Source: Trichococcus sp.
GTDB lineage: Bacteria > Bacillota > Bacilli > Lactobacillales > Aerococcaceae
DNA length: 64,000 nucleotides
Assembly (NCBI RefSeq): GCF_049684335.1
Contig: NZ_JBAVFV010000007.1
Location: 2,968-66,967 of the forward strand
Direction: 5' to 3'
Positions 19,314 through 53,997 of the stretch are shown piece after piece. Made by a program: the position numbers and the translations under genes. Within the stretch, counting starts at the first letter, position 1, and every line of letters begins with the position of its first letter. The notes beneath the pieces are model-generated. The model had not been told where the DNA came from. It searched no databases and saw nothing but the letters and a program-made list of their open reading frames with translations.

Positions 19314-19316
19314 AGG

Positions 19317-19478: not shown

Positions 19479-19493
19479 AGTTGATACGCTCCC

Positions 19494-20910: not shown

Positions 20911-20924
20911 TTTTCAATCCTCCT

Positions 20925-21713: not shown

Positions 21714-21747
21714 TTTTCCACCCACTCACATTTATTTATTTAGTCCT

Positions 21748-22083: not shown

Positions 22084-22119
22084 ATCCGATTGCCCTCTCT
22101 TGCTTGCCGGCCTGGAGGG

Positions 22120-22314
22120 CTATTTTTTTGCATATTTTTCTTTTCTAATTCCTAGCTGAACTTCATCAATGACTAGCAAAACGCATTTGATTTTTTTATT
22201 CCAATCCATCCCCTTGATTTCATAGCCGTTAACTTGAAGAAAGTTGTCTATTGCCGATCTGTTGAAATTATGCAAAACAATCTCACACCTGGTTAGTTCG
22301 TTTTCGCTTTCCAT
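22120..22314 (-). CDS. Hypothetical phage protein
   Basis: 64-aa ORF in the early-gene string. Confidence 0.4.
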   Translation of the reverse strand: MESENELTRCEIVLHNFNRSAIDNFLQVNGYEIKGMDWNKKIKCVLLVIDEVQLGIRKEKYAKK

Positions 22315-22328
22315 CGTTTCGCCCCCTT

Positions 22329-22427
22329 TTATTCTTCAGTGAAGCATTTCCATACCGTTCGCAGCGTTACATAGGTTAGGAACCCAACGAGTAACCCGGC
22401 CATATATGATTGTGTGATAGCATCCAT
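22329..22427 (-). CDS. Hypothetical 32-aa hydrophobic peptide (below the ORF-track cutoff)
   Basis: MDAITQSYMAGLLVGFLTYVTLRTVWKCFTEE* behind a strong AAGGGAGGTG RBS. Confidence 0.4.
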   Translation of the reverse strand: MDAITQSYMAGLLVGFLTYVTLRTVWKCFTEE

Positions 22428-22506
22428 TTTTTACACCTCCCTTCATTGATAAGATTTCAATTCTCTCAATCCGCCCCCGGATTTCTCTATTTTTATTTTT
22501 TACCGC

Positions 22507-22788
22507 TCATCGTTCTAAAGTTTTCATGAAGTCATCAATTGATTTTCTTGATATAAGTGTTCTGCCCTGCACCTGGATAAGCGGTAACCCGGTATGTATC
22601 AAGCGTTCTAATATCGCTCTTGATACTCCTAGATATTGGGCCGCTTCACCTTTTGAATAGTATGCCTTACGTTCTAGCGGATCATTGAAAGCCGATTGTA
22701 TTGCAGCCCTTACCGATTCTTTTACATGCTGCTCTATAGTTTCGTTTAGGCCTTCCAGTTCAATAGAAAATGTTGGCTTAGTATTCAT
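22507..22788 (-). CDS. Excisionase/MerR-type HTH DNA-binding protein
   Basis: YYSKGEAAQYLGVSRAILERLIHTGLPLIQVQGRTLISRKSIDDFM is an Xis-type HTH_17-like segment. ATG start behind AGGGAAGGTG. Confidence 0.6.
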   Translation of the reverse strand: MNTKPTFSIELEGLNETIEQHVKESVRAAIQSAFNDPLERKAYYSKGEAAQYLGVSRAILERLIHTGLPLIQVQGRTLISRKSIDDFMKTLER

Positions 22789-23047
22789 GAATTTCACCTT
22801 CCCTATTTTTATAAGCCGTGCCGATCATCATGCCTTTGTTGTCGAACAAATCCACTTCTGTTTCTCTGCTGTGATAGCCTGTTTTTGAAATATATACGAC
22901 ACCTTTTCTTCTTGCTTTGGTGTAATACTCAACTGTCAAAGGGCTGATATGATAGCCTAGTTCTTTAAGGTGATCGAGTGACTTCACTTTGTATCCAACG
23001 AAAACCCGTTTTCCGGATTCAGTTATCAAAAAATATTTTTTCAGCAT
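22778..23047 (-). CDS. Hypothetical phage early protein
   Basis: 89 aa from the ATG behind GAGGTGG. Confidence 0.45.
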   Translation of the reverse strand: MLKKYFLITESGKRVFVGYKVKSLDHLKELGYHISPLTVEYYTKARRKGVVYISKTGYHSRETEVDLFDNKGMMIGTAYKNREGEIHEY

Positions 23048-23072
23048 GTTTTCCACCTCAAATCTTGAATTA

Positions 23073-23306
23073 TTATTTACATTCCTTTACTTTTTGTTCA
23101 AAAAAAATTTCATCAATCGTAATGTCTGGAAAATATGGTAACAATACATCTTTCATAGCTTGTTTTTCCCGATCATTAAAGGGTAATTTCCCACGCTCTT
23201 TCGGGCTATATTGCTGCTTGCTGATACCTAACTTCGCTCCCATTTGTTCTTGTGTTAACCCTAGCATTGCACGATAGCCGGCAATTTTATTTATTTTAAC
23301 GTCCAT
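23073..23306 (-). CDS. Cro-like XRE-family HTH regulator
   Basis: IAGYRAMLGLTQEQMGAKLGISKQQYSPKERGK HTH_3 motif. Divergent from the repressor gene. AAGGAGG RBS. Confidence 0.8.
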   Translation of the reverse strand: MDVKINKIAGYRAMLGLTQEQMGAKLGISKQQYSPKERGKLPFNDREKQAMKDVLLPYFPDITIDEIFFEQKVKECK

Positions 23307-23426
23307 CCCTCTCAACCTCCTTTACCTTTCTTTACTCTATAATAACCTGAACATCTTACCATGTCAACAAATACATTTACTTTTATTTACTTTTTAACTA
23401 TAATGGAGTGGTAGGGAGGCAAACAA

Positions 23427-24344
23427 ATGAATATTGATAAAATAAATGTAGGTCTTAGAATTAAATCTATTAGACAAGCCAAAGGGTTCAACATGGAGGA
23501 ATTCGGTAAACTAGTAAACAATACCAGTAAAGGTGCTGTAAATAATTGGGAAAAAGGTGTTAATTTACCTAATACTGAAAGACTATCAATTATTGCTAGA
23601 TTAGGTGAAATATCCGTCAATGAATTGTTGTATGGTTCATTAAATGATTTTGCGTATAGAACTTTAGAATTATTAAAAACAAAACACTCATATAGTGATT
23701 CATTAATTCTAACTATAATGGATCGAATTGATGAATTGATTTTAAAAAGTTTGGGTTTTTCTAAGCCTTATACTAAAGAAATGTTTTATAGTTTTTTCAT
23801 TGATTATTATTCAAAGCTTTTACACAAAACAATGGATCAATTAACGCATGATGATATTAGAAAACCTGATTTTGAAGATAGTCTTGTATCTTTTGTTAAC
23901 AATTACGGTATATCCTTCATGGATATAAAAGAAAAAATTTCTAAAGCAATAGACGGTATACAAGCCGTTGAAATAAATCAATTTAAAAATGACAATTATA
24001 AGCTGCTGTATAATCCATCTTTTAAAAATGAATTATTGGAATATCTTATAAGTGAATATTCATTTGATAACCTATCTGAAGCCGGATTTACTCCATACAT
24101 AAAAGAAATATTAGATGAATATCTGAATAAGCAAGTATTCAATAACAAATATTTACCTTATTCAGTAACAAATGCATCAAATCTATCTGCTGATCTTCTT
24201 AGTGATTTTGTAGTTCCTAAAATAAATGAATATTTCAAAGATTCTAATTTAGATAAGAATTTCCATTCAGATATTTTAGAAACAATATCTGAAGCAAAGA
24301 AAAAAATATATGCAATAAACGCAACCTATTTAGAAAAAGAATAA
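23427..24344 (+). CDS. XRE-family repressor with a long uncharacterised C-terminal domain and no S24 peptidase domain
   Basis: The N-terminal HTH is LRIKSIRQAKGFNMEEFGKLVNNTSKGAVNNWEKGVNLPNTERLSIIARL. About 230 further residues show no Ser/Lys LexA-type autocleavage motif. The gene sits between int and cro. Confidence 0.75.
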   Translation: MNIDKINVGLRIKSIRQAKGFNMEEFGKLVNNTSKGAVNNWEKGVNLPNTERLSIIARLGEISVNELLYGSLNDFAYRTLELLKTKHSYSDSLILTIMDRIDELILKSLGFSKPYTKEMFYSFFIDYYSKLLHKTMDQLTHDDIRKPDFEDSLVSFVNNYGISFMDIKEKISKAIDGIQAVEINQFKNDNYKLLYNPSFKNELLEYLISEYSFDNLSEAGFTPYIKEILDEYLNKQVFNNKYLPYSVTNASNLSADLLSDFVVPKINEYFKDSNLDKNFHSDILETISEAKKKIYAINATYLEKE

Positions 24345-24404
24345 TATTATGCCGGATTCCCGGCACCTCTCGAACCAATGCCCCCGGTGAAAGAGGGAAA
24401 AATC

Positions 24405-25556
24405 ATGGCACAAATAAAAAAATATACAAAAAAAGACGGTTCAACCGCCTATAAGTTTCAAACATACTTAGGAACTGATCCGGAAACCGGAAAACAAAAA
24501 TTCACCACCCGGAGAGGGTTCGCAACTTTAAAAGATGCCAAGTTAGCAGCTTCACGCTTGAAAGTAGAAATAGAAGAAAATGGCTTCCAGGATAACAAGC
24601 GCCATACCTTCAATGAATTATATGAATTGTGGTTCGATTCTGCGTATAAGGCCACGGTAAAAGAAAGCACCTATGCCAGGACAAAAGAACTATTCACGAA
24701 TCACATTCTGCCAAAGTTCGGTAAAAGGGATATTGAAAAAATCAGCGTTACTTATTGCCAGACTACCGTTAACGACTGGTGTAAAACGATGGCAAAATAT
24801 CGCATATTGAAGAACTATACAACCCGGGTCCTGGATTATGCAAGTTCACTCGGACTATTGAAAGATAACCCAATGAAAAAAATCTCAATGCCAAAGCGCA
24901 AAGAGAAAGTTGACCAGGAAGAAGCCGAAAATTTTTATAGTAAAGAAGAATTGCAGCATTTCCTTGCATGCGTAAAGGCTGACGGTTTCCCTCGTTGGTA
25001 TGCCCTGTTTCGGCTCCTGGCTTTTACCGGATTCCGCAAAGGTGAAGCCCTGGCGCTGCAGTGGAAGGATATAGATTTCACCAATGGGAAAATAACTGTT
25101 AATAAAACTTTAGCCAGGGGTGAAAATAACCGCCTGATTATTCAATCACCGAAAACAAAATCCAGTTTGCGGACTATTTCTGTTGATGCCCTTACTATGC
25201 AAGTTCTGAAAGAATGGAAAACGCAGCAAGCGAAAGACTATTTGAAATTAGGCTTCAACACTATGAGCGCTGCACAACCATTATTCACCACTATCAATAA
25301 TGAATATATGCAGCATGCAACGGTAACGAATCGGATAAATAAAATCATTAAGAAGCATGATCTAAAGGTTATCACCGTCCACGGCTTGCGGCACACTCAT
25401 TGTAGTTTGCTATTTGAAGCCGGGGCACCGATCCAGGAAGTGAAAGAACGGCTCGGACATTCTGACATTCAAACAACGATGAATATTTATACCCACGTCA
25501 CCGAAAAAGTGAGAGAACAAACGGCCGAAAGGTTTGCTAAATTTGTGAATTTTTAG
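24405..25556 (+). CDS. int: Tyrosine site-specific integrase
   Basis: MAQIKKYTKKDGSTAYKF N-terminus (SAM-like domain). C-terminal catalytic motifs are ...RKGEALAL..., HGLRHTHCSLL and LGHSDIQTTMNIYTHV. ATG behind AGAGGGAAAAA. Confidence 0.92.
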   Translation: MAQIKKYTKKDGSTAYKFQTYLGTDPETGKQKFTTRRGFATLKDAKLAASRLKVEIEENGFQDNKRHTFNELYELWFDSAYKATVKESTYARTKELFTNHILPKFGKRDIEKISVTYCQTTVNDWCKTMAKYRILKNYTTRVLDYASSLGLLKDNPMKKISMPKRKEKVDQEEAENFYSKEELQHFLACVKADGFPRWYALFRLLAFTGFRKGEALALQWKDIDFTNGKITVNKTLARGENNRLIIQSPKTKSSLRTISVDALTMQVLKEWKTQQAKDYLKLGFNTMSAAQPLFTTINNEYMQHATVTNRINKIIKKHDLKVITVHGLRHTHCSLLFEAGAPIQEVKERLGHSDIQTTMNIYTHVTEKVREQTAERFAKFVNF

Positions 25557-25585
25557 AATTACATATTCAATTACATATTCAGTGC

Positions 25586-25620
25586 AAAAAAAATAAGCCT
25601 TGAAACATTGCAGAAAAGGC
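25586..25620 (-). terminator. Candidate terminator supplied by the element for the interrupted tRNA-Lys transcript
   Basis: The minus strand reads GCCTT-N14-AAGGC followed by TTATTTTTTTT, about 40 nt past the tRNA 3' end. Confidence 0.4.
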
Positions 25621-25661
25621 GCTCTACCAACGTTTCTAAGACTTATTAAAATGATAATGTA

Positions 25662-25734
<73 letters not shown>

Positions 25735-27283: not shown

Positions 27284-28651
27284 TCAACTAATTTCCGGCA
27301 TATAGCTCATCGAAGAAAATTTATTGAATTCCTTTTTGAACAGGAGCTTTACGGTTCCCCGCGCTCCGCTCCGGTTTTTTTCAATGATGACCTCTACGAC
27401 ATTGTTCTCCTGCTCATCCCGTTCCGACTCATCGCCGCCTTCACGTTCGTAATAATCGTCGCGGTACAGGAACGCAACGATATCGGCATCCTGCTCGATC
27501 GATCCCGATTCACGGATATCACTCAATACGGGACGTTTGTCTTGCCTCTGTTCCACGCCACGAGACAATTGTGAAAGGGCAATTACCGGTACTTTCAGCT
27601 CTTTCGCCAATTTCTTCAATTGACGCGAAATGTCAGAAACTTCCTGTTGGCGGCTTTCGCGGTTATTTCCTTCAATCAGCTGCAAATAGTCGATCACGAT
27701 GAGACCCAGTTTTCCCTGTTCCTGTAGCAAACGACGGCTTTTTGCCCGGATTTCCGCAATCCGGATACCCGGCGTATCATCTATGAAGATTTTTGACTGG
27801 CCCAAAGTCCCCATCGCCATGATCAAGTTGGACCACTCATCTTCAGAAAGCTGCCCTGTCCGCAAGTGACCGGCATCAATGTTCCCTTCCGCACACAGCA
27901 TCCGGTTGACCAATGACTCCGCCCCCATCTCCAAGCTGAAGATGGCGACTACCTGATCCGCTTTGGTTGCGACATTCTGCGCGATATTCAGCGCAAAAGC
28001 GGTCTTACCTACGGCCGGACGCGCTGCCAGGATGATCAGCTCTTCTTTCTGGAGGCCTGCCGTCATTTTGTCCAAGGCGATGTAGCCTGTTGGCACCCCA
28101 GTCACATCATCGCTTCGTTGAGCCAACGATTCGATATTCTGCAACGATGCCGAAACGACATCCGAGATGCGGATGAAGCCGGATCGGTTTCTCCGTTCGG
28201 ATACCTGAAGGATGTTCTGTTCGGCGCTGTCTAGCATGACGGCGAGCTCATCACCCTCTTCATAGCCTTTGCGGACGATTTCTGTAGCTGACCGGATCAG
28301 GTTGCGCAAGATCGATTTTTCTTCCACTATCTTGGCGTAATATTCCACGTTGGCTGAAGTCGGTACCGCAATTGCCAATTCGGCCAAGTACTCCATGCCG
28401 CCAGCATTTTCAAGCTGATTCTTCGTATCCAACTCATTCGAGATGGTGACGACGTCAATCGCTTCATTCCGATTGTTCAATTGCAAAATCGCATCAAAAA
28501 TAATCTGATGATTTTTTCTGTAAAAATCAGATGATTCAAGGTATTCTAAAACATTCACAACCGTTTCGGGATCCAAAAAAATGGAGCCTAGAACGGATTG
28601 CTCTGCTTCTATACTATGAGGGGGTATGCGATCTTGAAGTGTTTCTTCCAT
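27284..28651 (-). CDS. dnaB: Replicative DNA helicase (DnaB family; DnaC in Bacillus nomenclature)
   Basis: IPPHSIEAEQSVLGS N-terminus, Walker A ARPAVGKTAF, and IVIDYLQLI. Confidence 0.95.
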   Translation of the reverse strand: MEETLQDRIPPHSIEAEQSVLGSIFLDPETVVNVLEYLESSDFYRKNHQIIFDAILQLNNRNEAIDVVTISNELDTKNQLENAGGMEYLAELAIAVPTSANVEYYAKIVEEKSILRNLIRSATEIVRKGYEEGDELAVMLDSAEQNILQVSERRNRSGFIRISDVVSASLQNIESLAQRSDDVTGVPTGYIALDKMTAGLQKEELIILAARPAVGKTAFALNIAQNVATKADQVVAIFSLEMGAESLVNRMLCAEGNIDAGHLRTGQLSEDEWSNLIMAMGTLGQSKIFIDDTPGIRIAEIRAKSRRLLQEQGKLGLIVIDYLQLIEGNNRESRQQEVSDISRQLKKLAKELKVPVIALSQLSRGVEQRQDKRPVLSDIRESGSIEQDADIVAFLYRDDYYEREGGDESERDEQENNVVEVIIEKNRSGARGTVKLLFKKEFNKFSSMSYMPEIS

Positions 28652-28932
28652 TTTATATTTTCACCCTTTAGGTTTTTTCATTCGGATGAGGAAATCATTA
28701 CTGGCTTCTTCATCTTTTGCTTCCTTATTGTATCCTAAATCAGCCACATTTACAATTCAGAATACAGAACGTTTGTTCCCTTTTTTTCGAAAATTCTGCT
28801 GGGACTGTCCGCCTTAATAAGGCTGTCAGATTTATTTTCTTCTATATTATAGGGGTGCCTCAGTGATCCTCATAAACAAACGAAAAGACAGAGATTGATA
28901 TCTCTGCCTTTCATTTTATATTTGGAAAATCA

Positions 28933-29382
28933 TTATCCTTCCGTCACTTGCACTGTCAACATTGCTGTCACTTCCGGATGAATTTTAACGGACATTTTTG
29001 TGAAACCCAACGCGCGGATAGGATTTTCTAATTCAATTTTTCGTTTATCTAATTTAACATTATGTTGCTTTTGCAATGCTTCAGCAACCTGTTTCGTTGT
29101 AATGGAACCGAACAAACGACCATCTTCGCCAATTTTTGCCGACAATTTGATGATTGATTCCTCTTTCTCCAGCAGTGCCTTCAATTCTTGCGCAACTGCC
29201 AACTCTTCAGCCTGCTTCTTCTCTTCCGCTTTCTTTTGGCCTTTCAATGCGGAAATAGTGGCGGCATTCGCTTCATCAGCCTTACGGTTTTTGATCAGGA
29301 AAGTAGCATAGCCATCTGCTATGTCTTTGACTTCCCCTTTTTTTCCTTTACCTTTAACATCCTCTAAAAAAACAACTTTCAT
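28933..29382 (-). CDS. rplI: 50S ribosomal protein L9
   Basis: [29 protein letters not shown]. Confidence 0.95.
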
Positions 29383-29385
29383 TTA

Positions 29386-31404
29386 TTATTCCCCTTCCTT
29401 GATTTTTTCTGGATTTATAACTGCCTTCAGTTTCTCAACGACTTCATGGACTGTCGTATTCTCAATCTGAGTAGCTGCATTGGATAAATGTCCGCCGCCG
29501 CCTAATTTTTCCATGACTGTCTGCACATTGTATTGACCCAGACTTCTGGCGCTGATGCCCACTCTACCGTCCTGGCGTTTTGTGACGACAAATGAAGCAT
29601 CTACCGCTTCCATCGACAACATCGTGTCGGCTGTTTGAGCAGCGACGACCGTGTCGTATATTTTTTCATCTTCTCCATGAACAATCGCCAGGTTACCATC
29701 CACAAATTCCATAGTCTGCAATAAATGACTACGCAACAGATAAGTATCCAAGTCCTCTTTCAGTGATTTCTGGATAAGTACGGTGTCCGCTCCATTGGAC
29801 TGCAGATAACTGGCAGCATCAAACGTCCTTGATCCGGTTCTCAAACTGAAGTTTCGGGTATCGACGATAATCCCCGCCAACATAGCCGTTGCTTCTATTT
29901 TATTGATGGCATCCATCTCATTGGATTGATATTCGAACAATTCAGCAATCAATTCTGACGTGGAGGATGCATAAGGTTCCATATAGACCAAAACAGAATC
30001 TTTCGGAAACTCTTGTCCGCGTCTATGATGATCCAAGACGACTATTTTTTTAGACAGATTCAACAGCCCAGGTGCTGGCGTCATGGATGGGCGATGGACA
30101 TCGACCATCACGATGAGCGTCTGTGACGTCACCAATGCCATTGCTTGCTCAGGCGAAATAATCCGCTTCGCAATCAAAGGATCTTTGTCTATCTCTTGCA
30201 TAATACGATTCACATCATTGGAAAATTGTTGTGGATCCAATACTATCCAGGCTTCCCGATTGTTCATCTGAGAAATACGGCGGATTCCTAAGCAGGAACC
30301 GATGACGTCCATATCCGGATAACTATGCCCCATGATGATCACCTTATCGGCATGGACAATAAGCTCTTCCAAAGCCTGGCTGATCATTCTCGCACGGATA
30401 CGGGTCCGTTTTTCCATTGGGTTAGTTTTGCCGCCATAGAAACGGGCATCTTCATTTTCGGCTCTCACAACAACCTGATCGCCACCTCTTGCCAAGGCTA
30501 AATCAATATTCGACTGCGCCATTTTGGCGACTTCTTTAAAATTAGTTTGCTCAAAAGTTTTTTCATATGAGAAGCCCATGCTCAATGTCAACGGAAAATT
30601 TTGCTTGTAGGTTCTTTCTCTTATTTGATTTATAATATCAAAATTATTTTCTTCGATTTTCTTTAAAGCTCGCATATTGGTCAATGCTATAAAGCGGTCA
30701 TCATCCACTCGTTTCAAAAAGACATTATTCATGTTTGCCCAATTTGTGAGTTGATTCGTCAGATAGTTGTTTACATTCGATCGCTTACGATCGTTCATGG
30801 ATTGAACAGCCTCATCATAATTGTCGACAATGATATTCCCAAAAACAAATTTTTCGTCTTTGTACTTTTCTTCAATTTTGGCATATTCTGTTATATCCAT
30901 CAAATAAATGACGCCAATATCCTCTTGAATGATCATATCAAAATAATGATCTCCCCATTTCACACGGCGTATCACATAGTCCTGCGATTCTTTAAAAAGC
31001 TGATATAATTCTTCATCAACCACATTCAGCTTTCTTCCAAGTATATCTTTCTTGCCAAAATACTTTATTAAATATGGGTTCATCCATTGGATTTCTTCTT
31101 GCTTATTATATAGAAGTATCCCAATAGGCATTTTAATCAAAGCCTCTTGTTCACCTTTTTTGATTCGATAAGATAAGTCAGATATGTATTGATTTGTCTC
31201 ATCAATCAAATACTCCGAAGAATAACTGATGAATCCAACAATCCCAACGCATAAGAGCATAATTCCAATTCCGATTTTCCAATCTGCAATGAAAGTCAAC
31301 ACAACGATCACCAGCAATAAGAATACGATAATCAGGAAAGGAACCTTAATCTTGTCAGCCTTTATGAAGTGAGGAAGATTCTTTAACTTTTCCTTTATTT
31401 TCAT
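29386..31404 (-). CDS. gdpP: Cyclic-di-AMP phosphodiesterase GdpP (two TM helices, PAS-like, degenerate GGDEF, DHH/DHHA1)
   Basis: DHH motif (IMGHSYPDMDVIGS, DHHRR) and DHHA1 (GGGGH). Start was moved to the ATG at 31404 (MKIKEKLKNL) behind AAAGGAG. Confidence 0.9.
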   Translation of the reverse strand: MKIKEKLKNLPHFIKADKIKVPFLIIVFLLLVIVVLTFIADWKIGIGIMLLCVGIVGFISYSSEYLIDETNQYISDLSYRIKKGEQEALIKMPIGILLYNKQEEIQWMNPYLIKYFGKKDILGRKLNVVDEELYQLFKESQDYVIRRVKWGDHYFDMIIQEDIGVIYLMDITEYAKIEEKYKDEKFVFGNIIVDNYDEAVQSMNDRKRSNVNNYLTNQLTNWANMNNVFLKRVDDDRFIALTNMRALKKIEENNFDIINQIRERTYKQNFPLTLSMGFSYEKTFEQTNFKEVAKMAQSNIDLALARGGDQVVVRAENEDARFYGGKTNPMEKRTRIRARMISQALEELIVHADKVIIMGHSYPDMDVIGSCLGIRRISQMNNREAWIVLDPQQFSNDVNRIMQEIDKDPLIAKRIISPEQAMALVTSQTLIVMVDVHRPSMTPAPGLLNLSKKIVVLDHHRRGQEFPKDSVLVYMEPYASSTSELIAELFEYQSNEMDAINKIEATAMLAGIIVDTRNFSLRTGSRTFDAASYLQSNGADTVLIQKSLKEDLDTYLLRSHLLQTMEFVDGNLAIVHGEDEKIYDTVVAAQTADTMLSMEAVDASFVVTKRQDGRVGISARSLGQYNVQTVMEKLGGGGHLSNAATQIENTTVHEVVEKLKAVINPEKIKEGE

Positions 31405-31519
31405 GATAGCTCCTTTACTGAACCTACATTTTGCACTTGTACATTTTAACATATCCAGATAATAATAGCTATAATGCCCTTTCTGACGGGATTAGTTGAC
31501 ATCTCAACGAAAAATTTAA

Positions 31520-31535
31520 TGTTTCACGTGAAACA
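31520..31535. promoter_or_regulatory. parS site 1 (ParB/Spo0J binding site)
   Basis: TGTTTCACGTGAAACA matches the Firmicute parS consensus TGTTNCACGTGAAACA at 16 of 16 positions. It sits inside an 18-bp perfect palindrome. Confidence 0.8.
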
Positions 31536-31889
31536 TTTTTCTGGATAATGTTCGTATTCCAGACAGCAGATTTTCTGAGTGCAACCAGTCAACTTTATGT
31601 TTTCGACGTTTAAAGTATAATTTCCTCAATTACAGTATGCGCTCTGGGACAGATAGACTAATTCCAAACTATCCAGTCTTCATTACGCCCATCAACCAGA
31701 TTGGATTATAGTGCTGCATTTTTTCTGGATATTTTTCAAAGCATAACTCTATTTTTGGTGAGTAATTATCCGCAATCGGATTTGGACGCCTTGAAAATAT
31801 ATCTCTCAAAATAGTAACCACTGCCAATCAAAATGTAATTATTATTATAGTTCTCACTTAATTGCAATTCCCTCTACACTATTTTCAAA

Positions 31890-31905
31890 AGTTCCACGTG
31901 GAACT
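31890..31905. promoter_or_regulatory. parS site 2
   Basis: AGTTCCACGTGGAACT, inside the 22-bp perfect palindrome 31887-31908. Confidence 0.65.
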
Positions 31906-31964
31906 TTTTTAATTACCCCCATAAATTTATCCTCAAATCCTGTGTAAGTATATTTCTTTAACGA

Positions 31965-31980
31965 TGTTCCACGTGGAACT
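31965..31980. promoter_or_regulatory. parS site 3
   Basis: TGTTCCACGTGGAACT. Confidence 0.7.
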
Positions 31981-32265
31981 TTTATGTTCGCTCATGTTGT
32001 CTCTTCGATTTGATCCCTTCAGCTGCTATTTTTTTTCAGCATAAACTCGCTTTCTTTCACCACCGATTACTCTAACAACCATTTTTACGGAAAACGATTT
32101 TCATGATTCCTTCCCTTACTATTTCACTAATAATTTGAATAATCTAGTTATACGATGTTCTCCTATTTTTCATGCAATTTACAGAATTTATTTTATTGTT
32201 TGAAAATGAATTTTCATCCTGTCTATCTTTTCTAAGTTTCCTGTTCCTGTAGCAACTCCTGTTCT

Positions 32266-32772
32266 TGTGGATAACTCAAACCATTGTCAACCTTTTTAGT
32301 TATCCACATTATCCGTCGTTCGCCTGTGCACAACTAAATTAAATAGTACGATCTATCCTTGATAGAACAGGATTTTCGCCATAAAATAATTTTGTTGATA
32401 ACTTATTACCCTGATATTATTTATGATCCCTTTGGTGCTGCCGAACACCTGTGGACATCCTGTGTATAAGTCGGAATTAACAAGCGAATCCCTCTATATA
32501 CAACTGAACATTTGTTTGATTAGTGTGTTTATGAAATAATGCCCTTTATTTTGGATGAATTTACTATCATTTTAATGAAAATTGTTGAATCTTGAAATAG
32601 TCACCCTTATATCCAGCTTTTAGTCATTACTGCTCGCTTGCAACTGCATAACAGAAGTCAGTTGATTTTAGCGAGATCTTTCTGTGGATAAAGTTAAAGA
32701 AATAGTTTTCCACATCCTATATTTGAATGTACACTAAGTCTTGGAATCATCGCCATATCCTTTTATGGATAA
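32266..32772. promoter_or_regulatory. DnaA-box cluster outside oriC
   Basis: Perfect TTATCCACA/TGTGGATAA boxes lie at 32266, 32300 and 32683. One-mismatch boxes lie at 32461 (TGTGTATAA), 32706 (TTTTCCACA) and 32764 (TATGGATAA). Two-mismatch boxes lie at 32309 and 32450. Confidence 0.7.
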
Positions 32773-33824
32773 CTAAAAACAAAAATACAATCAGCCTGTC
32801 TGTATACAACCTGCGGATCATTATTTCCAGTGACATTAAATGTTACGATGAAATCATCTCATTAATATAGTATGCAAAAGATAGTCTTTTGCTCTTCCAG
32901 CACCTGACTTAATTTTAATGCATCTCAATTCGTAGAAAAACTATCCCTTGATTCGAATAGGTTCGATTATTCTGAGTGAATCATTCCTTTCATATTTCAC
33001 GAATAACTTTAATTAATCCATCATTTTAATTCAGCACACATATTAGGAATACACAGCCTGAACGGAAGCCTTCAACTGTGAAGCTGATATATTTCGAATA
33101 GTAGCAATCTATTTTTAGATTTAGTCATTATATCTGCGATTACTATAGATTTGCATGTGTATTTTTTGTCAGTCCTAGACCTGATTATTTGAATCTACTA
33201 ATAAGTTCTATGGCTATGAATGCAGAACCGGAACCTTTTTGCGCACTGCTGTTTGATACCTCTGATGCGAATCCTCAGATTCTCTGTAATTTATCATTGA
33301 AATAATCTACATTTTGTAGTGTATCCCTATCTTTTATATGGCCTTAAGATAAAAGGGGGGCTTTCGCTGCTTTATGCTGCCTGATCTCGGATATCTGATT
33401 TTAGATTTGTGTCAAACGAGCTAATTTATTCTTGCTACTTTTTTCAACCACCAAGTCCTCCAGTCATCGTAATTTTTTTGCATGCATCAATCAGAACTAC
33501 TCTAAGTGGAATCTGCTGCTGTCGGTAATATAAAACTGTACTGGAAGAGTATGTATTTGTTTGCCCTGCGGGATATCTGCAGGATGGGGAGATAGGAAAG
33601 ATCTTACTTCTTCTAGATTGTACGCTGTGGACATTCCCCAACAACTCCGTTCTTCCTCCTTTCAGAAATGTTTTACTATCGCCGAAGTATACGCTTTAGC
33701 CAATGGCATTGATCAGCAGATGATGTTTTTTGACATCCAGCATTCCATTGTTAAGAACACTACTCCCAAGGTTGATCCAACAGGAGCGATCTAAATATTT
33801 TTTGCATCAAAAACAGTGCTAAAA

Positions 33825-33840
33825 TGTTCCACGTGGAACA
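33825..33840. promoter_or_regulatory. parS site 4
   Basis: TGTTCCACGTGGAACA at the centre of the 40-bp perfect palindrome 33813-33852. Confidence 0.75.
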
Positions 33841-34081
33841 TTTTAGCACTGTCGATTTTCCTTTGTTCAAATCGCCAAAATTTAAGCTTCTGACAGCATC
33901 TGCATTCTTGCTTGAAGATTTACCCACGACTAAGTTTAATTCGTTCTCCCAGGGGTAAAATAACCCGATCAGAGCATCATAGTACCTAGCCTTATACCAC
34001 AATGAAGAATATCCAGTCGGTGCGCCAGCGCTTATGGAAAGAAAAATTTCCGAATTCCTCTGCTAGCGTGACGAGTAGGGG

Positions 34082-34245
34082 AGGGCATTTAGATAAGGCA
34101 GAATCCTTGGTGTTGAGCTTTCAAATAGGCTGTTCAGTGTACCCGAGACGAGCAATAAATTGGCGGAGATCTTAAGGGGAATGATCCGCTAAGGCTGATG
34201 CATAAAAACAGCCTAGCCTTCTTAGTTTGCCTATTTAGTAATGCC
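34082..34245. ncRNA. Candidate structured RNA (strand and identity unknown)
   Basis: Nested complementary segments are 34082-34088/34239-34245 (7 bp), 34095-34099/34227-34231 (5 bp) and 34125-34133/34206-34214 (9 bp, perfect). An alternative 9-bp hairpin (34187-34196/34208-34216) competes for the same 3' strand. The region is GC-richer than the neighbouring ORF-free DNA. Confidence 0.25.
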
Positions 34246-34433
34246 CGAAGGAGACATGGGAGGAGCCGCTCAGAAAAATACAGCAATAAGTTTGCTTCAC
34301 CTAACCATATGATCGTTCAACAGAAACGGATAAAGCGCATCGAAAAAATTTGTATCCGGAAGAGGTGAAAGGGGCGCGATATCGGGTGCAGTGCGGTGTG
34401 TCTGTTGTCCAGCAGCTCTTTTTGGGTACAAAA

Positions 34434-34459
34434 AAAGGAGCGCTCCTAGAAGCGACTCC
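34434..34459 (-). terminator. rpsR terminator
   Basis: The minus strand reads GGAGTCGC ttctagga GCGCTCC followed by TTTTTTT. Confidence 0.7.
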
Positions 34460-34466
34460 CTTAATA

Positions 34467-34709
34467 TTATTCTGCTAATGTAAATGGCATAAGAGCCATG
34501 ATACGAGAACGTTTGATAGATACAGTCAAAGTTCTTTGATGTTTAGCGCATGTACCTGTTACACGACGAGGTAAAATTTTACCTTTTTCAGATATATAAC
34601 GTTTCAATAAATCAGTCTCTTTGTAATCTACATGATCAATGTGGTTAGCACAGAAATAACAAACTTTCTTACGTTTGCGTCCGCCTCTGCTGTTACGTTG
34701 AAATGCCAT
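34467..34709 (-). CDS. rpsR: 30S ribosomal protein S18
   Basis: [20 protein letters not shown]... from the ATG at 34709 behind GGAAAAGGAGGAA. Confidence 0.95.
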
Positions 34710-34752
34710 GTCAATTCCTCCTTTTCCTAAACTAACCATTCTGTCCTAAAGA

Positions 34753-35304
34753 CTAGAACGGTAAATCATCATCTGAAATGTCAATTGATTCCCCGTTTGA
34801 TGAAAACGGATCAGCAGTTGAGTTAAAATCAGAAAAACCGTTTTGTTTCGGAGAAGAGTATTGATTATTATACTGTCCTTGGTTTTGGTTAGATTCAAAA
34901 GATTTGCTTGATCCGAAGTTTGCACTCGGAGCTGCTTGATTTGAAGAACTTGCGCCAGTCTCTCTCGGTCTTTGTTCGGTAGTTGTTTTCGATTCCAACA
35001 ATGTGAAATTATCTGCAACGACTTCAGTCACGTATACGCGCTGTCCTTGTTGATTATCATAATTCCTTGTTTGGATTCGGCCAGTGATACCGACTAAAGA
35101 GCCTTTACGAGTGAAATTCGCGAAATTCTCTGCAGATTTTCTCCAAATGACACAATTGATGAAGTCAGCTTCTCTTTCTCCTGCTTGGTTAGTAAACTGT
35201 CTGTTTACTGCAAGAGCGAAGGTTCCGACTGCTGTGCCGCTGGATGTATAGCGTAAATCAACATCTTTTGTAAGTCTGCCGACTAAGACAACATTATTAA
35301 TCAT
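34753..35304 (-). CDS. ssb: Single-stranded DNA-binding protein
   Basis: [22 protein letters not shown]-fold N-terminus and the acidic tail DISDDDLPF. Confidence 0.95.
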
Positions 35305-35324
35305 TCATCTTACTCCTTTCAAAA

Positions 35325-35340
35325 TGTTTCACGTGGAACA
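35325..35340. promoter_or_regulatory. parS site 5, in the rpsF-ssb intergenic spacer
   Basis: TGTTTCACGTGGAACA. Confidence 0.7.
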
Positions 35341-35342
35341 CT

Positions 35343-35636
35343 TTACTTAGTTTCTACTTTAACAACGATGTGGCGAATGATATCGCTATTGATCTTTGCT
35401 AGACGGTCGAATTCGTCGATTGCTTTAGCATCTGAAGCAGAAATTTTCACGATATGGTAGATACCTTCACGAAAATCTTTGATTTCATAAGCTAAACGGC
35501 GTTTCGCCCAGTCTTTTGATTCAATAACTTCAGCGCCATTATCAGTTAAAATAGAATCGAAACGTGCGATCAATTCTGCTTTAGCTTCTTCTTCGATGTT
35601 AGGACGGATAATGTAGTTGATTTCGTAATTGCTCAT
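35343..35636 (-). CDS. rpsF: 30S ribosomal protein S6
   Basis: [17 protein letters not shown]... Confidence 0.95.
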
Positions 35637-43364: not shown

Positions 43365-43514
43365 ATAAATTAAATAATATTAGTAATAGTAGTAGGGCCT
43401 GTTTATACTGTGGATAAGTGAAAGAAGCTGACAATACAAGTAGTTTTCCACTTGTGGATAACGTGTTCGTAAATGCAGTCTTACTTATTGGCTTATCCAC
43501 AATGCGCGAGAGCA
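43365..43514. promoter_or_regulatory. oriC, dnaA-dnaN half: AT-rich tract, TAG/TAA trinucleotide repeats, DnaA boxes
   Basis: Perfect DnaA boxes lie at 43409, 43453 and 43493. TAGTAATAGTAGTAG (43381-43395) and a GGGCC spacer sit next to them. An AT-rich stretch (43365-43380) lies next to dnaN. Confidence 0.8.
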
Positions 43515-44855
43515 TCATTTTTTCAGACTGTTTTTGATCGTCTCGATTTCGCGTTGCAGAACAGGGTCTTTTTTTACGGAAAGGGCAATCTTGTCATGTG
43601 CGTGAATGACAGTCGTGTGATCCTTGCCGCCGAATTCGGAACCGATTTTCGGTAAGGAATTATCCGTCATCACTCGGGAAAGGTACATAGCGATTTGTCT
43701 TGGCACAACGATACCCTTGGTGCGCTTCTTGCCTTTCAATTCCTCGACGGTCACATGGTAATATTTCCCGACCGCTTGCTGGATGGCATAGATGGATAAA
43801 GCTTTTGGTTTTTCGGAAGGCATGATGCTCTTCAGAGCGTCAGCTGCCAGACTGGTGGTGATGTCGGTCCCTTGTATCGCTGAATAGGCTTGAACCCGGA
43901 CGAGGGCGCCTTCCAGTTCCCTGATGTTGGAATCTATCTGCCCAGCGATATAGCTGAGGGTGTCATCAGGGATTTCCAGGCGCTCGCTGTTGGCTTTTTT
44001 GCGCAGAATGGCGATGCGTGTCTCCAGGTCGGGCGGTGTGATATCAACCGATAAGCCCCAAGCAAAACGCGAGACGAGCCGTTCCTGTAGCTTAGGGATC
44101 TCGTTCGGCAAGCGATCGCTCGTCAGCACAATCTGCTTGCGTTCATCGTAAAGCGCATTGAAAGTATGGAAGAACTCTTCTTGTGTTCCTTCTTTGTCGG
44201 CAAAAAATTGAATATCATCGACCATCAATAAGTCGACGCTGCGGTATTCATTGCGGAATTGTTCCTGCGTCCGATTCTGGATGGAATTGATGAAATCATT
44301 GGCGAATGTTTCGCTGCTGACATATTTTACTCTGGCGGTTGGCCGTAGTTGCAACATTTGATGGCCGATGGCGTGCATCAAATGGGTCTTGCCTAAGCCT
44401 ACTCCCCCATAGAAGAAGAGCGGGTTGTAGATTGTGCCGGGTTCCTCCGCCACGACGAGGGCAGCAGCATGAGCCATCTGGTTTCCTTTTCCTATAACAA
44501 AGGTGTCAAAGGTATACTTGCTGTTCAGTTGGGCATCCTTGAAGAGACGATTGTTGTTGGTGCGTTTGATGGTCGGTTTTGCAATATCAGGCATTTCCTC
44601 ATTCTTGATCATAAAAATGGGAGTCAGTTCTTTGCCGCTGAATTCGTAGATACCTTCGACAATTCTGCTCATCAAATTATTTTGCCAATAATCTTTATGT
44701 AAAGAAGAGGGAACTTCGATGATGATATTCGTATCAGTCAGTCGGACCGGGACTGCGCTGTCTATCCAAGTATCGTAGCTGACTTTGGACAGTGATTCTT
44801 GAAATTTTTCTTGCAGATAACGCCATAATGAATAGATGTCATCCAAATGGGACAC
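43515..44855 (-). CDS. dnaA: Chromosomal replication initiator DnaA
   Basis: 446 aa with Walker [11 protein letters not shown] and the C-terminal DNA-binding domain ([11 protein letters not shown]). Confidence 0.97.
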
Positions 44856-45316
44856 CTCCTTTTAGTGAGTCCTTTTTATTTTAGCATTATATCAAAAAGT
44901 TTTCCACAACTCTTTTCATCTGTGAATAAAACAATTAACCGGTGCATAAATAGTTTTCCACAGGCTTGAGGAAGGTGTGGAAAAGGTTTGTGTGCGAAGT
45001 TGTTATCCACGGTCGGTTGTGGAATTCCACGTTTTCAAAACGTTGATTGTTACGGCGTTTGATACACTTTTCCACAGGTTTTGGAGGTGAGGTTTAGGTA
45101 GAAATACACACGCTGTAGGGATGTGGATAAATCGGATCGAAGGTGTGAGCAATCAAGAAGGCTGCAGGAGTTATCCCGTGCCATTGTGTATTAAAAAAAA
45201 GGTTGTGGATAATTTTATTTTGATGAGAATCAAATTTTTTTCAAGAAAGGTGTTTTATCTTTCAATTTTTTGTGCTATTATATCTCAGTGAGTTCAATAA
45301 AATGAACCAATTTTAC
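44856..45316. promoter_or_regulatory. oriC, upstream-of-dnaA half: DnaA-box array and the dnaA promoter region
   Basis: Perfect boxes lie at 45122 and 45204. One-mismatch boxes lie at 44900, 44921, 44954, 45003 and 45068, and a two-mismatch box at 44976. An AT-rich tract follows the boxes. Confidence 0.8.
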
Positions 45317-52488: not shown

Positions 52489-53997
52489 TTAGGACAGTGT
52501 CCGCTTTTCGCCGTCAAGATCGATGATCGGTTGGATGTCCTGCACGTATTCAAGTGTTCCCATATAGCTGTCATCGTCATCCCTGACGGCGCGGTAGGTG
52601 ACCAGGATGAACTTGCCCATCGCGCGGAACCACATCGATTCGCTTTCTTTCGCGCCTGATTTTAGGTCGGTGAGCAGTTTCGTGACGATCGGCAGGCTCT
52701 TCGGTGGATGGCAGTTCATGACGTCGCGGCCAATCGCGCTGCTGGTGCGCTTGAAAAATTTTTCTTCGCCGTTGTCATTGTAGTAGCGCACGATATTGTC
52801 CGCATCGACAAAAGTCAATTCCAAAGGGATGTTGTTCAGCATCTTTTCCAATTGATGCGGCGTCAGATGCCCGGTTTGGAAAGTGATGTAAGAATTTGTT
52901 TCCGTCTGCTGTGTTTCATGTGAAACATCCTCGGGGATAGAACGTTCCGGCACCCATTTTGTTTCCGGTTTGACGATGCAGTAGCCGATCTCTTCGGACT
53001 CCTTGGCTATCTGCAGCCAGTGGTCCTCATTGAAGATGTCGATGATCATCGGCAGGAGGATGTCTTCTTCCTTCGTGATCATCTCCGTCATTTCGTATTT
53101 CAGATCGGAGAAAGCTTTGGGAATCGCGGCAAAGTCCTCGTTTTGCAGAATGGTTTTGAAGTCCTTATACATGGAGCGGATATCGTCATCGACACCCCAC
53201 ATGACTTTCGGCGGGGCAGTGATGCCTTTGTTCTCCATAATCGGGAAGAAGGCATATTCCTTGCGGGCATAATGCTTATCGAATTCGCCGAGTAGCGCCA
53301 ATTGTTTCTGGATGCCTGCCTTCAGGCTCGGTTCCTTCGTTTCAAGGTAAACGGCCAGTAATTTGCTGACTTTTTCCAGCGTGTTTTCGATGGCCAAATT
53401 TTCGAGTTTCATAACTTGGATCGGATGCCCGGCATGCTGCTGTTCCGCTGAAGTGGTGTAGACAGCTTCGATTGATCCGCCGAAGAGTGAGGCATGCACG
53501 TTGCAGAGGCGTTGGATGTCTTCGGCGTCTATCCCTTTGCCCATCAGGCCTTGCTCCATGACGGAAATCTCGTAGGCGCTGACGCCTGTGAAATGTTTCT
53601 TGAAGTCGGCTTGCACCGCATCCCAATCCTCTCCTCTATGCAAGCGCAGGATGAGGCTCTGCAGGATGTCTTGGCGTTCCTGGAATTCCGCTGAACCCAT
53701 GCGGGCAATTCCCCCGGTTGGAGCGGCGGGCTCTGCCGGTTCGCTTGGAGCAACCGTCCCCGGTGACGGCGCCAATTCCTTCACGCTGAATCCGTTGTTT
53801 GCCAGCATTTCGACGAATGTATCCTCCGGCACGTCGTTGCGTTTGAGAGCCTTCCCGATGGTCATGATTCGGCCGGCGGTATTCAGCATCTTGTCGCTGC
53901 GCAATGGTTCAAAGCCCAGACTGATGATGACTTCCCTGATTTCAGGGTATTGCTTCACCAGATTATAGACCGTATCGTTCAAACTGATTTCTTTCAT
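52489..53997 (-). CDS. DUF1858 / hemerythrin-like / DUF438 / PAS multidomain protein
   Basis: 502 aa. The N-terminus is DUF1858-like (TVYNLVKQYPEIREVIISLGF). The middle carries H/E-rich hemerythrin-like helices. The C-terminal part is PAS-like (FVDADNIVRYYN...). Recognised from memory. Confidence 0.6.
   Translation of the reverse strand: MKEISLNDTVYNLVKQYPEIREVIISLGFEPLRSDKMLNTAGRIMTIGKALKRNDVPEDTFVEMLANNGFSVKELAPSPGTVAPSEPAEPAAPTGGIARMGSAEFQERQDILQSLILRLHRGEDWDAVQADFKKHFTGVSAYEISVMEQGLMGKGIDAEDIQRLCNVHASLFGGSIEAVYTTSAEQQHAGHPIQVMKLENLAIENTLEKVSKLLAVYLETKEPSLKAGIQKQLALLGEFDKHYARKEYAFFPIMENKGITAPPKVMWGVDDDIRSMYKDFKTILQNEDFAAIPKAFSDLKYEMTEMITKEEDILLPMIIDIFNEDHWLQIAKESEEIGYCIVKPETKWVPERSIPEDVSHETQQTETNSYITFQTGHLTPHQLEKMLNNIPLELTFVDADNIVRYYNDNGEEKFFKRTSSAIGRDVMNCHPPKSLPIVTKLLTDLKSGAKESESMWFRAMGKFILVTYRAVRDDDDSYMGTLEYVQDIQPIIDLDGEKRTLS

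Follow-up and report, generated by a model that had tools for sequence, protein, structure and literature searches.

The origin region of the Trichococcus chromosome (Carnobacteriaceae) carries five 16-bp palindromes that, judged from their sequence, are almost certainly genuine ParB-binding sites for chromosome segregation (parS). Such sites are an ordinary kind of element, and a cluster of them is also of an already known kind. The unusual part is the composite gene desert between rpsR and gdpP, in which parS sites are combined with DnaA boxes. We consider it highly likely that the following account holds as a whole: the five palindromes are origin-proximal parS centromere sites, the rpsR-gdpP spacer is a platform for ParB and DnaA, and parS4 is set in a hairpin. 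The analysis covered a 64-kb stretch of DNA (the window), and the features discussed below are listed in Table 1.

Table 1. Predicted features of the origin region, in window coordinates
Feature	Position	Strand	Remarks
gdpP-rplI-dnaB (dnaB, replicative helicase)	27284..31404	-	downstream of rpsR-gdpP spacer
Gene-free spacer, rpsR stop to gdpP start	31405..34466		3,062 bp; holds parS1-4 and DnaA-box cluster
parS1 TGTTTCACGTGAAACA	31520..31535		0 mismatches
DnaA-like box TTATCCAGA	31540..31548	-	1 mismatch; 4 nt from parS1
parS2 AGTTCCACGTGGAACT	31890..31905		2 mismatches, both at outermost bases; inner 14-mer perfect
parS3 TGTTCCACGTGGAACT	31965..31980		1 mismatch; 75 bp from parS2
DnaA-box cluster	32266..32772		7 boxes in 507 bp, up to 1 mismatch
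Perfect DnaA boxes TTATCCACA	32266, 32300, 32683	-, +, -
One-mismatch DnaA boxes	32393, 32461, 32706, 32764	-, -, +, -
Extended palindrome around parS4	33813..33852		20 bp per arm; A-run on one side, T-run on the other
parS4 TGTTCCACGTGGAACA	33825..33840		0 mismatches; centre of 40-bp perfect palindrome 33813-33852
rpsF-ssb-rpsR operon	34467..35636	-	oriC side of rpsR-gdpP spacer
parS5 TGTTTCACGTGGAACA	35325..35340		0 mismatches; in 38-bp gap, rpsF stop to ssb start
oriC	43365..45212		flanks dnaA (43515-44855)
Weak parS-like site TGTTTCATGTGAAACA	52912..52927		1 mismatch in core; inside hemerythrin/PAS gene; candidate only
Weak parS-like match	55960		2 mismatches

Five parS sites cluster near oriC

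The whole window was scored for the 16-bp palindrome TGTTNCACGTGNAACA, allowing up to 2 mismatches. This yielded 7 matches compared to 0.21 ± 0.41 in 100 dinucleotide-preserving shuffles, none of which (0/100) reached 7. Five of the matches lie within 3.8 kb; three are perfect, one has a single mismatch and one has two, with the mismatches at the outermost bases only. An earlier note on this DNA had listed the same five 16-mers, called them origin-proximal matches to the Firmicute parS consensus and given the spacing of parS2 and parS3 as 75 bp. All five were found where the note had placed them, the spacing was exact, and the consensus matches proved to be far above chance and kept in syntenic loci. 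The distance of 10-13 kb from oriC given in the same note was roughly right, the measured values being 8.0-11.9 kb to the unwinding site and up to 13.7 kb to the farthest oriC DnaA box.

The window has the gene order dnaA-dnaN-recF-gyrB-gyrA-rpsF-ssb-rpsR-[spacer]-gdpP-rplI-dnaB. Its cumulative GC-skew minimum lies at ~42 kb, next to dnaA. The dnaA-dnaN spacer contains an AT-rich stretch, DnaA-trios (TAGTAATAGTAGTAG) and three perfect DnaA boxes, with the DnaA-trio/AT-rich unwinding module at ~43365-43420. Further DnaA boxes are found at 44900-45212, and the oriC region upstream of dnaA holds 2 perfect and 6 one-mismatch boxes.

The remaining two matches in the window are weak. The one at 52912 recurs in L018, a locus with a PurL exactly matching that of the window. 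No further perfect parS site was found in ~74 kb of origin-region sequence (the 64-kb window plus a 10-kb extension from L018), and the 18-kb loci of relatives contained no perfect parS beyond the sites described here. Within these ~74 kb the motif therefore does not look like a dispersed repeat, a possibility that the earlier note had raised.

The parS sites are conserved across Trichococcus and in part across the family

We compared 13 Trichococcus loci and 6 outgroup loci. The order and syntenic position of the parS sites are kept across the 13 Trichococcus loci, apart from parS4, which is missing in one of them (L004), while the flanking DNA drifts. That the sites are retained at syntenic positions amid drifting DNA speaks strongly for a protein that binds them sequence-specifically.

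The parS1 core was present in all Trichococcus loci, at -82/-83 in the main clade and T. ilyis or at -78 in the T. palustris group; these offsets were counted from an upstream gdpP start of the 31452 type as reference. In the window we place the gdpP start codon at 31404, which gives a 672-aa protein fully covered by homologues of 672-676 aa, and parS1 lies ~115 bp upstream of it. The DnaA-like box beside parS1 is kept in most main-clade species. The inner 14-mer of parS2 (GTTCCACGTGGAAC) hardly varies within the main clade, the outer bases of the site being either A or T. The spacing of the parS2-parS3 pair is 65-78 bp in the main clade and T. ilyis, and 313 bp in T. palustris. parS4 is present in 11 of the 12 Trichococcus loci that span its position, and wherever a Trichococcus locus extends to the rpsF-ssb gap, parS5 is found there.

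Beyond the genus, a perfect parS upstream of gdpP was found in Jeotgalibaca, Carnobacterium divergens, C. maltaromaticum, Granulicatella and one further relative, and a site with 1 mismatch in Desemzia. Counterparts of parS5 were present in Jeotgalibaca, Desemzia and the further relative, with 1 mismatch in both Carnobacterium species, and absent from the Granulicatella locus. Going by this comparison of sequences, the positions of parS1 and parS5 are ancestral and common to the Carnobacteriaceae.

The rpsR-gdpP spacer is gene-free and expanded in Trichococcus

The noncoding setting described in the earlier note was confirmed, with parS1-4 in the rpsR-gdpP spacer and parS5 in the short gap between rpsF and ssb. 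The spacer is AT-rich (GC 0.33-0.38 in 1-kb windows) and contains no ORF longer than 80 aa. Across all 7 close relatives no ORF of at least 30 aa stays intact, nor does any show codon-position bias. A degraded gene was rejected on the basis of these ORF-conservation and codon-position tests and of a six-frame Pfam scan, which was empty at E ≤ 1. A known RNA was likewise rejected, as the only Rfam match, in searches at the gathering threshold and at E ≤ 1, was a spurious miRNA on the palindrome. We also rejected an origin in a plasmid-derived partition or replication module, as no blastn match was found in 72,556 plasmids.

Identity of the spacer to close relatives was 0.80-0.84, compared to 0.71-0.85 at the four-fold sites of gdpP; the bulk of the spacer thus drifts at about the synonymous rate, and it has accumulated many indels. 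No alignment of this bulk with T. ilyis or T. palustris was possible, and four-fold-site identity to T. palustris is 0.33, that is, saturated. In a k-mer comparison of 10 full spacers, the only k-mers of at least 10 nt common to all were parS, DnaA boxes, a 14-mer upstream of gdpP and the T-run of the rpsR terminator, which in the window forms a terminator-like hairpin at 34441-34454.

Spacer length at the Trichococcus loci ranges from 2.7 to 4.3 kb. The corresponding spacer is 1.3 kb in Jeotgalibaca, ~0.38 kb in one further relative and 0.17-0.31 kb in Carnobacterium, Desemzia and Granulicatella. By this comparison, a spacer that once measured a few hundred bp has expanded, specifically in Trichococcus, to 2.7-4.3 kb of noncoding, nearly neutrally evolving AT-rich DNA. 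The expansion adds three parS sites and the DnaA-box cluster to the ancestral parS1, and the Carnobacteriaceae form a stepwise series from a 0.2-kb spacer with 1 site through a 1.3-kb spacer with 2 sites to a 3-4 kb spacer with 4 sites and the box cluster.

Drift at about the synonymous rate, the many indels and the variable length are what would be expected if the spacer were decaying junk left by lost genes or an integrated element, with the extra parS sites and DnaA boxes as leftovers or chance matches that have no function beyond the two ancestral sites; the outgroups, moreover, get by with a spacer of 0.17-1.3 kb and with one to three sites. We regard this reading as very improbable. There are no traces of protein-coding ancestry and no similarity to plasmids. 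Deletion bias in bacteria removes functionless DNA over time, so a functionless spacer should have been lost, whereas this one persists across a genus in which four-fold sites are saturated. parS2-4 and the DnaA boxes are retained even where the spacers can no longer be aligned, and chance would give only ~0.2 parS per 64 kb and ~1 DnaA box per spacer.

The spacer contains a DnaA-box cluster

The spacer is laid out as parS4, ~1 kb, the DnaA-box cluster, ~0.3 kb, and then parS3, parS2 and parS1. In 10 of 10 species, 7-10 DnaA boxes with at most 1 mismatch lie within 600 bp, compared to ~1 expected for the whole spacer. Several boxes within a few hundred bp of intergenic DNA are what defines, in sequence terms, a DnaA-box cluster outside oriC.

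Three perfect and four one-mismatch boxes in 507 bp of AT-rich gene-free DNA could also point to a second or former replication origin with parS sites of its own, since parS sites commonly flank origins. This seems to us scarcely credible. The cumulative GC-skew minimum is at ~42 kb near dnaA and not at 32.5 kb, and it is in the dnaA-dnaN spacer that box, GC clamp, DnaA-trios and AT-rich DNA form the canonical module. No DnaA-trio array was seen beside the boxes of the rpsR-gdpP spacer. A duplicate of oriC was rejected as well, the sole matches between the spacer and oriC being boxes of 9-15 bp.

parS4 is the centre of a covarying palindrome

Base pairing in the palindrome around parS4 extends well beyond the parS site. 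Of 110 cells at arm positions 11-20, 109 hold Watson-Crick pairs; each position shows 2-4 types of pair, G.T does not occur, and in most loci pairing ends at position 21. This covariation was counted directly on the centred sequences; the MAFFT alignment of the parS4 region was gapped, which broke the pairing register. As a minus-strand RNA the palindrome folds with -29.8 kcal/mol (z = -7.2). A T5 run follows the palindrome on the minus strand in main-clade loci. The T. palustris group has a T-run on the opposite strand only and none for the rpsR-sense strand. With its A-run on one side and its T-run on the other, the palindrome resembles a bidirectional terminator or a cruciform-forming sequence. 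Strictly Watson-Crick arms that lack G.T are consistent with a constraint that acts on both strands or on the DNA as such.

The surroundings of several sites invite another reading, in which the palindromes serve an unrelated transcription factor as operators with a CACGTG core, or are mere terminator hairpins, and in either case control the flanking operons and have no role with ParB. parS1 and parS2 are each located ~50-60 bp upstream of conserved -10-like elements: the conserved 14-mer ~50 bp downstream of parS1, just upstream of gdpP, is probably the gdpP -10 region, and a conserved TATAAT on the minus strand (31843-31848) is found ~50 bp downstream of parS2. parS5 is inside an operon, between rpsF and ssb, and parS4 is inside the covarying hairpin with its flanking A/T runs. 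We nevertheless consider this reading very improbable. What stays constant is precisely the parS consensus of 14-16 bp, and the flanks of the hairpin are free to change, which indicates that the sequence itself is selected and not only the ability to pair. In main-clade species neither parS2 nor parS3 has a longer stem or a T-run. No other regulator of Firmicutes that uses this 16-bp operator is known to us, and the sites occupy the origin-proximal position typical of parS. Moreover, Trichococcus genomes encode a ParB-domain protein (PMC6950789). The operator and ParB readings are also compatible, in that ParB bound near a promoter could regulate it as well.

ParB and its partner proteins

A motif scan detected no parB gene in the window. 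One ParB/Sulfiredoxin-domain protein, which could in principle be Noc, is recorded in 9 of 10 Trichococcus genomes, ScpA in 10 of 10 and ParA-type ATPase domains in 9 of 10 (PMC6950789). The Strepis 2020 table gives IPR004437 (ParB/RepB/Spo0J) as 0 for Trichococcus. This zero comes from an annotation artefact, as the same columns show 0 for B. subtilis, FtsZ and SecA too.

In the locus with a PurL identical to that of the window, trmE-mnmG lies just beyond the end of the window and forms the end of that locus, and in an Enterococcus relative the trmE-mnmG block continues into rsmG-parA-parB-ychF. The Trichococcus parAB genes are probably located beyond trmE-mnmG on the other replichore. A protein search with Enterococcus ParB returned Enterococcus only among the best 120 matches, and a metagenome scan with TrmE gave one truncated Trichococcus contig and otherwise enterococci and similar bacteria. 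The partial MnmG matched truncated proteins only, and no record matched the protein encoded at 1062-2168, at the left end of the window.

Discussion

We propose that the parS sites and the DnaA boxes of the spacer are used in the following way. Following established ParB biology, ParB dimers would recognize each 16-bp site, and CTP-bound ParB clamps would close and slide onto the flanking DNA. One partition complex would then cover a zone of 4 kb on the left replichore, 8-12 kb from oriC, where it would load SMC-ScpAB and aid separation of the sister origins. The box cluster may bind DnaA outside oriC, as do the B. subtilis clusters or E. coli datA, and DnaA bound there may damp initiation and/or regulate the adjacent gdpP-rplI-dnaB operon. 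The spacer would in this way be a composite platform for two origin-management proteins. The palindrome around parS4 would most likely act as a bidirectional terminator that keeps read-through from rpsF-ssb-rpsR out of the zone.

The closest counterparts are the chromosomal parS sites of B. subtilis and other Firmicutes, bound by Spo0J/ParB (consensus TGTTNCACGTGAAACA), which have the same 16-bp palindrome, the same origin-proximal location and the same expected partners, namely ParB, a ParA-type ATPase and SMC-ScpAB. The B. subtilis sites are scattered over a far wider region, with several located within genes, whereas Trichococcus has its five sites within 3.8 kb, all intergenic and four of them in one gene-free spacer. 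Tight parS clusters are known from Caulobacter, Myxococcus, Corynebacterium and Pseudomonas, where several sites in a few kb provide one ParB nucleation zone near oriC, as the Trichococcus cluster would. Those clusters are usually around parAB, while the Trichococcus cluster is located between ribosomal-protein and helicase operons, in a 3-kb noncoding stretch.

The B. subtilis cluster DBC[yydA-yycS] and E. coli datA are, like the cluster described here, intergenic and origin-proximal groups of consensus or near-consensus DnaA boxes outside oriC; in Trichococcus, by contrast, the predicted boxes are interleaved with parS in one spacer. B. subtilis, which has eight origin-proximal parS sites, represses early initiation through its DnaA-box clusters outside oriC, synergistically with Spo0J (PMC3245932). 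The parS4 palindrome, for its part, shares with bidirectional intrinsic terminators a long stable hairpin, an A-run upstream, a T-run downstream and covarying arms. It differs from ordinary terminators in that the tip of its stem is a predicted protein-binding site, its pairing is strictly Watson-Crick and its T-run is one-stranded in the T. palustris group.

The suggestion in the earlier note that the density of sites creates an unusually strong ParB/SMC loading centre remains speculation. In Hi-C of 12 gut bacteria, the number and position of parS sites were uncorrelated with the strength of the secondary diagonal (PMC10197239). A figure in that paper marks several parS sites within one 5-kb window, so tight clustering is not exceptional. 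Four features of the region had escaped the earlier note: the DnaA-box cluster, the growth of the spacer within this genus, the age of parS1 and parS5, which are shared across the family, and the covarying 40-bp palindrome around parS4.

A more far-reaching version of the proposal would treat the spacer as an "origin-management island". Here a transcription-insulated gene desert of 3-4 kb, its length selected, would juxtapose the ParB complex with DnaA titration, couple segregation and SMC loading with control of initiation, and carry parS in cruciform or terminator palindromes by design. We think this rather unlikely. To our knowledge, a composite centromere architecture of this sort is undescribed in bacteria.

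The parS cluster alone adds a genus and no new principle, as origin-proximal clusters are textbook knowledge. The arrangement may matter, since in otherwise compact DNA it consists of 3-4 kb of drifting, gene-free sequence in which the conserved content is only predicted ParB and DnaA sites and putative insulating hairpins. If the juxtaposition is functional, Trichococcus would offer a natural system for the interplay of ParB spreading and SMC loading with DnaA titration, for why the length of the spacer is kept, and for whether a bacterial centromere is kept free of transcription by design.

Results

A search of the whole 64-kb window for the consensus TGTTNCACGTGNAACA with up to two mismatches returned seven matches, compared with 0.21 expected from shuffles. 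Five of them reproduced exactly the coordinates of the 16-mers that an earlier note had picked out from the sequence alone, at 31520, 31890, 31965, 33825 and 35325 (parS1 to parS5). Three of the five are perfect; one mismatch occurs in the site at 31965 and two, both outermost, in that at 31890, where the inner 14-mer GTTCCACGTGGAAC is intact. The two weaker matches, at 52912 and 55960, are inside or adjoining genes. We consider it quite probable that the five are real parS sites, and an origin-proximal parS cluster is an already known kind of element. The one-mismatch match at 52912-52927 (TGTTTCATGTGAAACA) lies within a hemerythrin/PAS-domain gene on the other replichore, ~8–9 kb from oriC, and recurs (L018:1629) in L018, a locus fetched by its exact match to the PurL protein of the window.

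Gene order was obtained from NCBIfam and Pfam scans. In the dnaA-dnaN spacer (43365-43420), an AT-rich stretch is followed by DnaA-trios (TAGTAATAGTAGTAG), a GC clamp and the box TGTGGATAA; this is the textbook layout of the B. subtilis-type unwinding module. The cumulative GC skew reaches its minimum at ~42 kb, and the two observations together indicate that oriC is at dnaA. The parS sites had been placed 10–13 kb from oriC; they are indeed near it, but the measured distance is 8–12 kb, to the left of the dnaA origin. The jag-trmE-mnmG block, the usual neighbour of oriC, is broken up in the window (47868-63512) and in L018. Following jag there is first an acrylyl-CoA reductase-like gene, next a trehalose PTS/hydrolase operon and the hemerythrin/PAS-domain gene, then a Germane-domain gene, a GntR-family regulator and a complete pur operon, and trmE-mnmG is reached only ~27 kb from oriC.

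Features of the origin region (minus-strand reading) and of the prophage-like or satellite-like element
Feature	Position	Strand	Remark
oriC boxes	44900-45212		
dnaA	44855-43515	minus	
DnaA boxes and unwinding module	43365-43514		
dnaN, recF, gyrB, gyrA	gyrA 38478-35851	minus	order as given
rpsF	35636-35343	minus	
parS5	35325		between rpsF and ssb
ssb	35304-34753	minus	
rpsR	34739-34467	minus	
3-kb geneless stretch			between rpsR and gdpP
gdpP, rplI, dnaB, purA, tRNA-Lys	dnaB 28651-27284	minus-strand reading	beyond geneless stretch
Integrase	24378-25556		in element
HTH repressor-like gene	23427-24344		in element
DnaC/IstB-like ATPase and phage replication-domain protein	20035-21725		in element
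Prohead protease	18093-18668		in element
Tape-measure-like protein	13693-16473		in element

The ~13.3-kb element (12322-25674) has its integration site at the 3' end of tRNA-Lys(ctt) (25662-25734, minus strand). A direct repeat of 14 bp, ATGGGTAATGAGGG, marks its boundaries at 12322 and 25661, and its GC content is 30–43% compared to 45–55% outside. A riboflavin-type operon is preceded by an FMN riboswitch (3739-3854); this and a T-box leader (2216-2442, minus strand) are ordinary.

No parB was found within the 64-kb window. L018 reaches ~10 kb past its right end, through the pur operon to trmE-mnmG; in an Enterococcus relative the trmE-mnmG block runs on as rsmG-parA-parB-ychF. In a published domain matrix, one ParB/Sulfiredoxin-domain protein is listed for 9 of 10 Trichococcus genomes, the tenth also being without many other domains, while every one of the ten has ScpA and nine have ParA-type ATPase domains (PMC6950789). 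These counts predict that Trichococcus likely encodes a cognate ParB. The same table gives zero for its TIGRFAM-based ParB entry, which is an artefact and not a real absence, since its values for B. subtilis, FtsZ and SecA are zero too.

The gdpP gene starts at ATG 31404, with the ribosome-binding site AAAGGAG, and its 672-aa product is covered in full by GdpP homologues of 672–676 aa. This start sets the limits of the rpsR-gdpP spacer, which holds parS1–4, at 31405-34466 (3,062 bp). The spacer has no ORF >80 aa, no Rfam family at gathering score or E <= 1 and no similarity to plasmids, and its six-frame translation gave no Pfam match at E <= 1 except one 13-bit noise hit. None of its ORFs of at least 30 aa is intact across all seven close relatives, nor do these ORFs show first/second-versus-third codon position bias. 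The earlier proposal that parS1–4 lie in noncoding DNA is borne out by these negative tests.

A GdpP search of one-genome-per-species contigs identified the window as Trichococcus (Carnobacteriaceae), with 97–100% protein identity to most named species, 88–89% to the T. palustris group, and ~92% DNA identity to the best loci in the gdpP region. We compared 13 Trichococcus loci; a 14th, labelled as an Oscillospiraceae MAG, matches Trichococcus. Read from rpsF, all 13 share a parS site in the rpsF-ssb gap followed by an ORF-poor spacer, 2.7–4.3 kb long, with parS4 0.45–1.1 kb past rpsR. Measured from one shared reference gdpP start, a DnaA-box cluster lies 0.6–1.5 kb and parS1 78–83 bp ahead. 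The paired sites parS2/3 are 65–78 bp apart in T. ilyis and in the main clade. The few spacer ORFs of 100–176 aa in some species are not common to species and look like translated AT-rich noise. One locus (Trichococcus sp. K1Tr, L004) is without parS4, and another (T. flocculiformis, L005), whose contig stops before parS4, has a single site of the parS2/3 pair, so the count of parS sites is not strictly constant across the genus.

Spacer identity to close relatives was 0.80–0.84, and four-fold degenerate gdpP sites of the same pairs gave 0.71–0.85. No alignment of the spacer was possible with T. ilyis or with T. palustris, to which four-fold identity was 0.33. Only four groups of k-mers of at least 10 nt were common to ten full spacers: parS, DnaA boxes, the T-run of the rpsR terminator, and a 14-mer directly ahead of gdpP, the probable -10 region of that gene. 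Retention of motifs while the bulk drifts is the pattern typical of selection on protein-binding sites. That the spacer is junk DNA is unlikely, because the motifs outlast the loss of alignability and the spacer holds no coding remnant.

After 31455-31553, just upstream of gdpP, the most conserved spacer block is the AT-rich 32115-32173 (92–93% all-pairs identity in 8 species, retained in part by T. ilyis), in which no obvious ORF, promoter or known motif was seen. Fully conserved -10-like elements lie ~50–60 bp downstream of parS1 (TATAGCTATTAT, 31461-31475) and of parS2 (TATAAT, 31843-31848, minus strand), so ParB at these sites might also affect transcription towards gdpP-rplI-dnaB.

The DnaA-box cluster of the window (32266-32772) contains three perfect TTATCCACA boxes and four with one mismatch. 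Every species has 7–10 perfect or one-mismatch boxes within 600 bp, compared to ~1 per whole spacer in spacer shuffles. The cluster is similar to the DnaA-box clusters that B. subtilis has outside oriC, which repress early initiation and are synergistic in action with Spo0J (PMC3245932). A rival reading makes the spacer a second origin; against it, the skew does not switch there and the spacer contains no trio or unwinding element. A further one-mismatch box, TTATCCAGA (31540-31548), 4 nt from parS1, is kept in most main-clade species, and predicted ParB and DnaA sites may directly abut at parS1.

A 40-bp perfect palindrome is centred on parS4. Beyond the parS core, arm sequences vary among 11 loci but complementarity is kept: 109 of 110 cells at arm positions 11–20 are Watson-Crick, with 2–4 pair types per position and no G.T, and in most loci pairing ends at position 21. 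The RNA form of the hairpin has a folding energy of -29.8 kcal/mol (z = -7.2). In the main clade an A-run precedes it and a T-run follows, as at a bidirectional terminator; the T. palustris group has the T-run on the opposite strand only. The absence of G.T fits a both-strand constraint (bidirectional termination) or a DNA-level constraint, through a cruciform or through template switching that lengthens the palindrome. In the T. palustris group (L008–L010), parS sites upstream of gdpP also sit in perfect palindromes, much longer ones, with arms of 14–31 bp (e.g. L009:7761, L010:3621), indicating that extended palindromes recur around parS beyond site 4. The sites could instead be operators of a different CACGTG-binding regulator, or pure terminators, but what stays invariant is precisely the parS consensus, with stems that vary, which makes this reading unlikely.

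GdpP homologues of other Carnobacteriaceae were traced to their contigs, which were then scanned. The parS sites upstream of gdpP and in the rpsF-ssb gap indicate that sites 1 and 5 are ancestral in Carnobacteriaceae. The expanded spacer, sites 2–4 and the large DnaA-box cluster are, judging from the loci compared, Trichococcus features.

Spacers between rpsR and gdpP with their perfect DnaA boxes, and parS sites, in other Carnobacteriaceae
Species	Spacer	parS upstream of gdpP	parS in rpsF-ssb gap	Perfect DnaA boxes
Jeotgalibaca ciconiae	1.3 kb	2, 41 bp apart	1	0
Relative with 73% GdpP identity	376 bp	1	1	2
Carnobacterium divergens	165 bp	1	1 (1 mismatch)	0
C. maltaromaticum	231 bp	1	1 (1 mismatch)	0
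Desemzia incerta	270 bp	1 (1 mismatch)	1	0
Granulicatella adiacens	310 bp	2, 48 bp apart	0	0

Discussion

Together, the sites should seed a single ParB partition complex near oriC, on the left replichore. By established ParB biology, ParB clamps would load at parS in a CTP-dependent manner and then slide, and the complex would load SMC-ScpAB and support origin segregation. ParB and DnaA would both use the spacer as a common platform, and hairpins would limit the transcription that enters it.

The idea of an unusually strong ParB/SMC loading centre found no support: in one Hi-C study of 12 gut bacteria, parS number and position did not correlate with the strength of the secondary diagonal, and most detected parS were clustered, in some cases with several sites per 5-kb window (PMC10197239). 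The unusual part is the long gene desert, kept genus-wide, that also bears a DnaA-box cluster. Should the spacer length and the close placement of ParB and DnaA sites prove functional, this architecture could be a new form of parS cluster.
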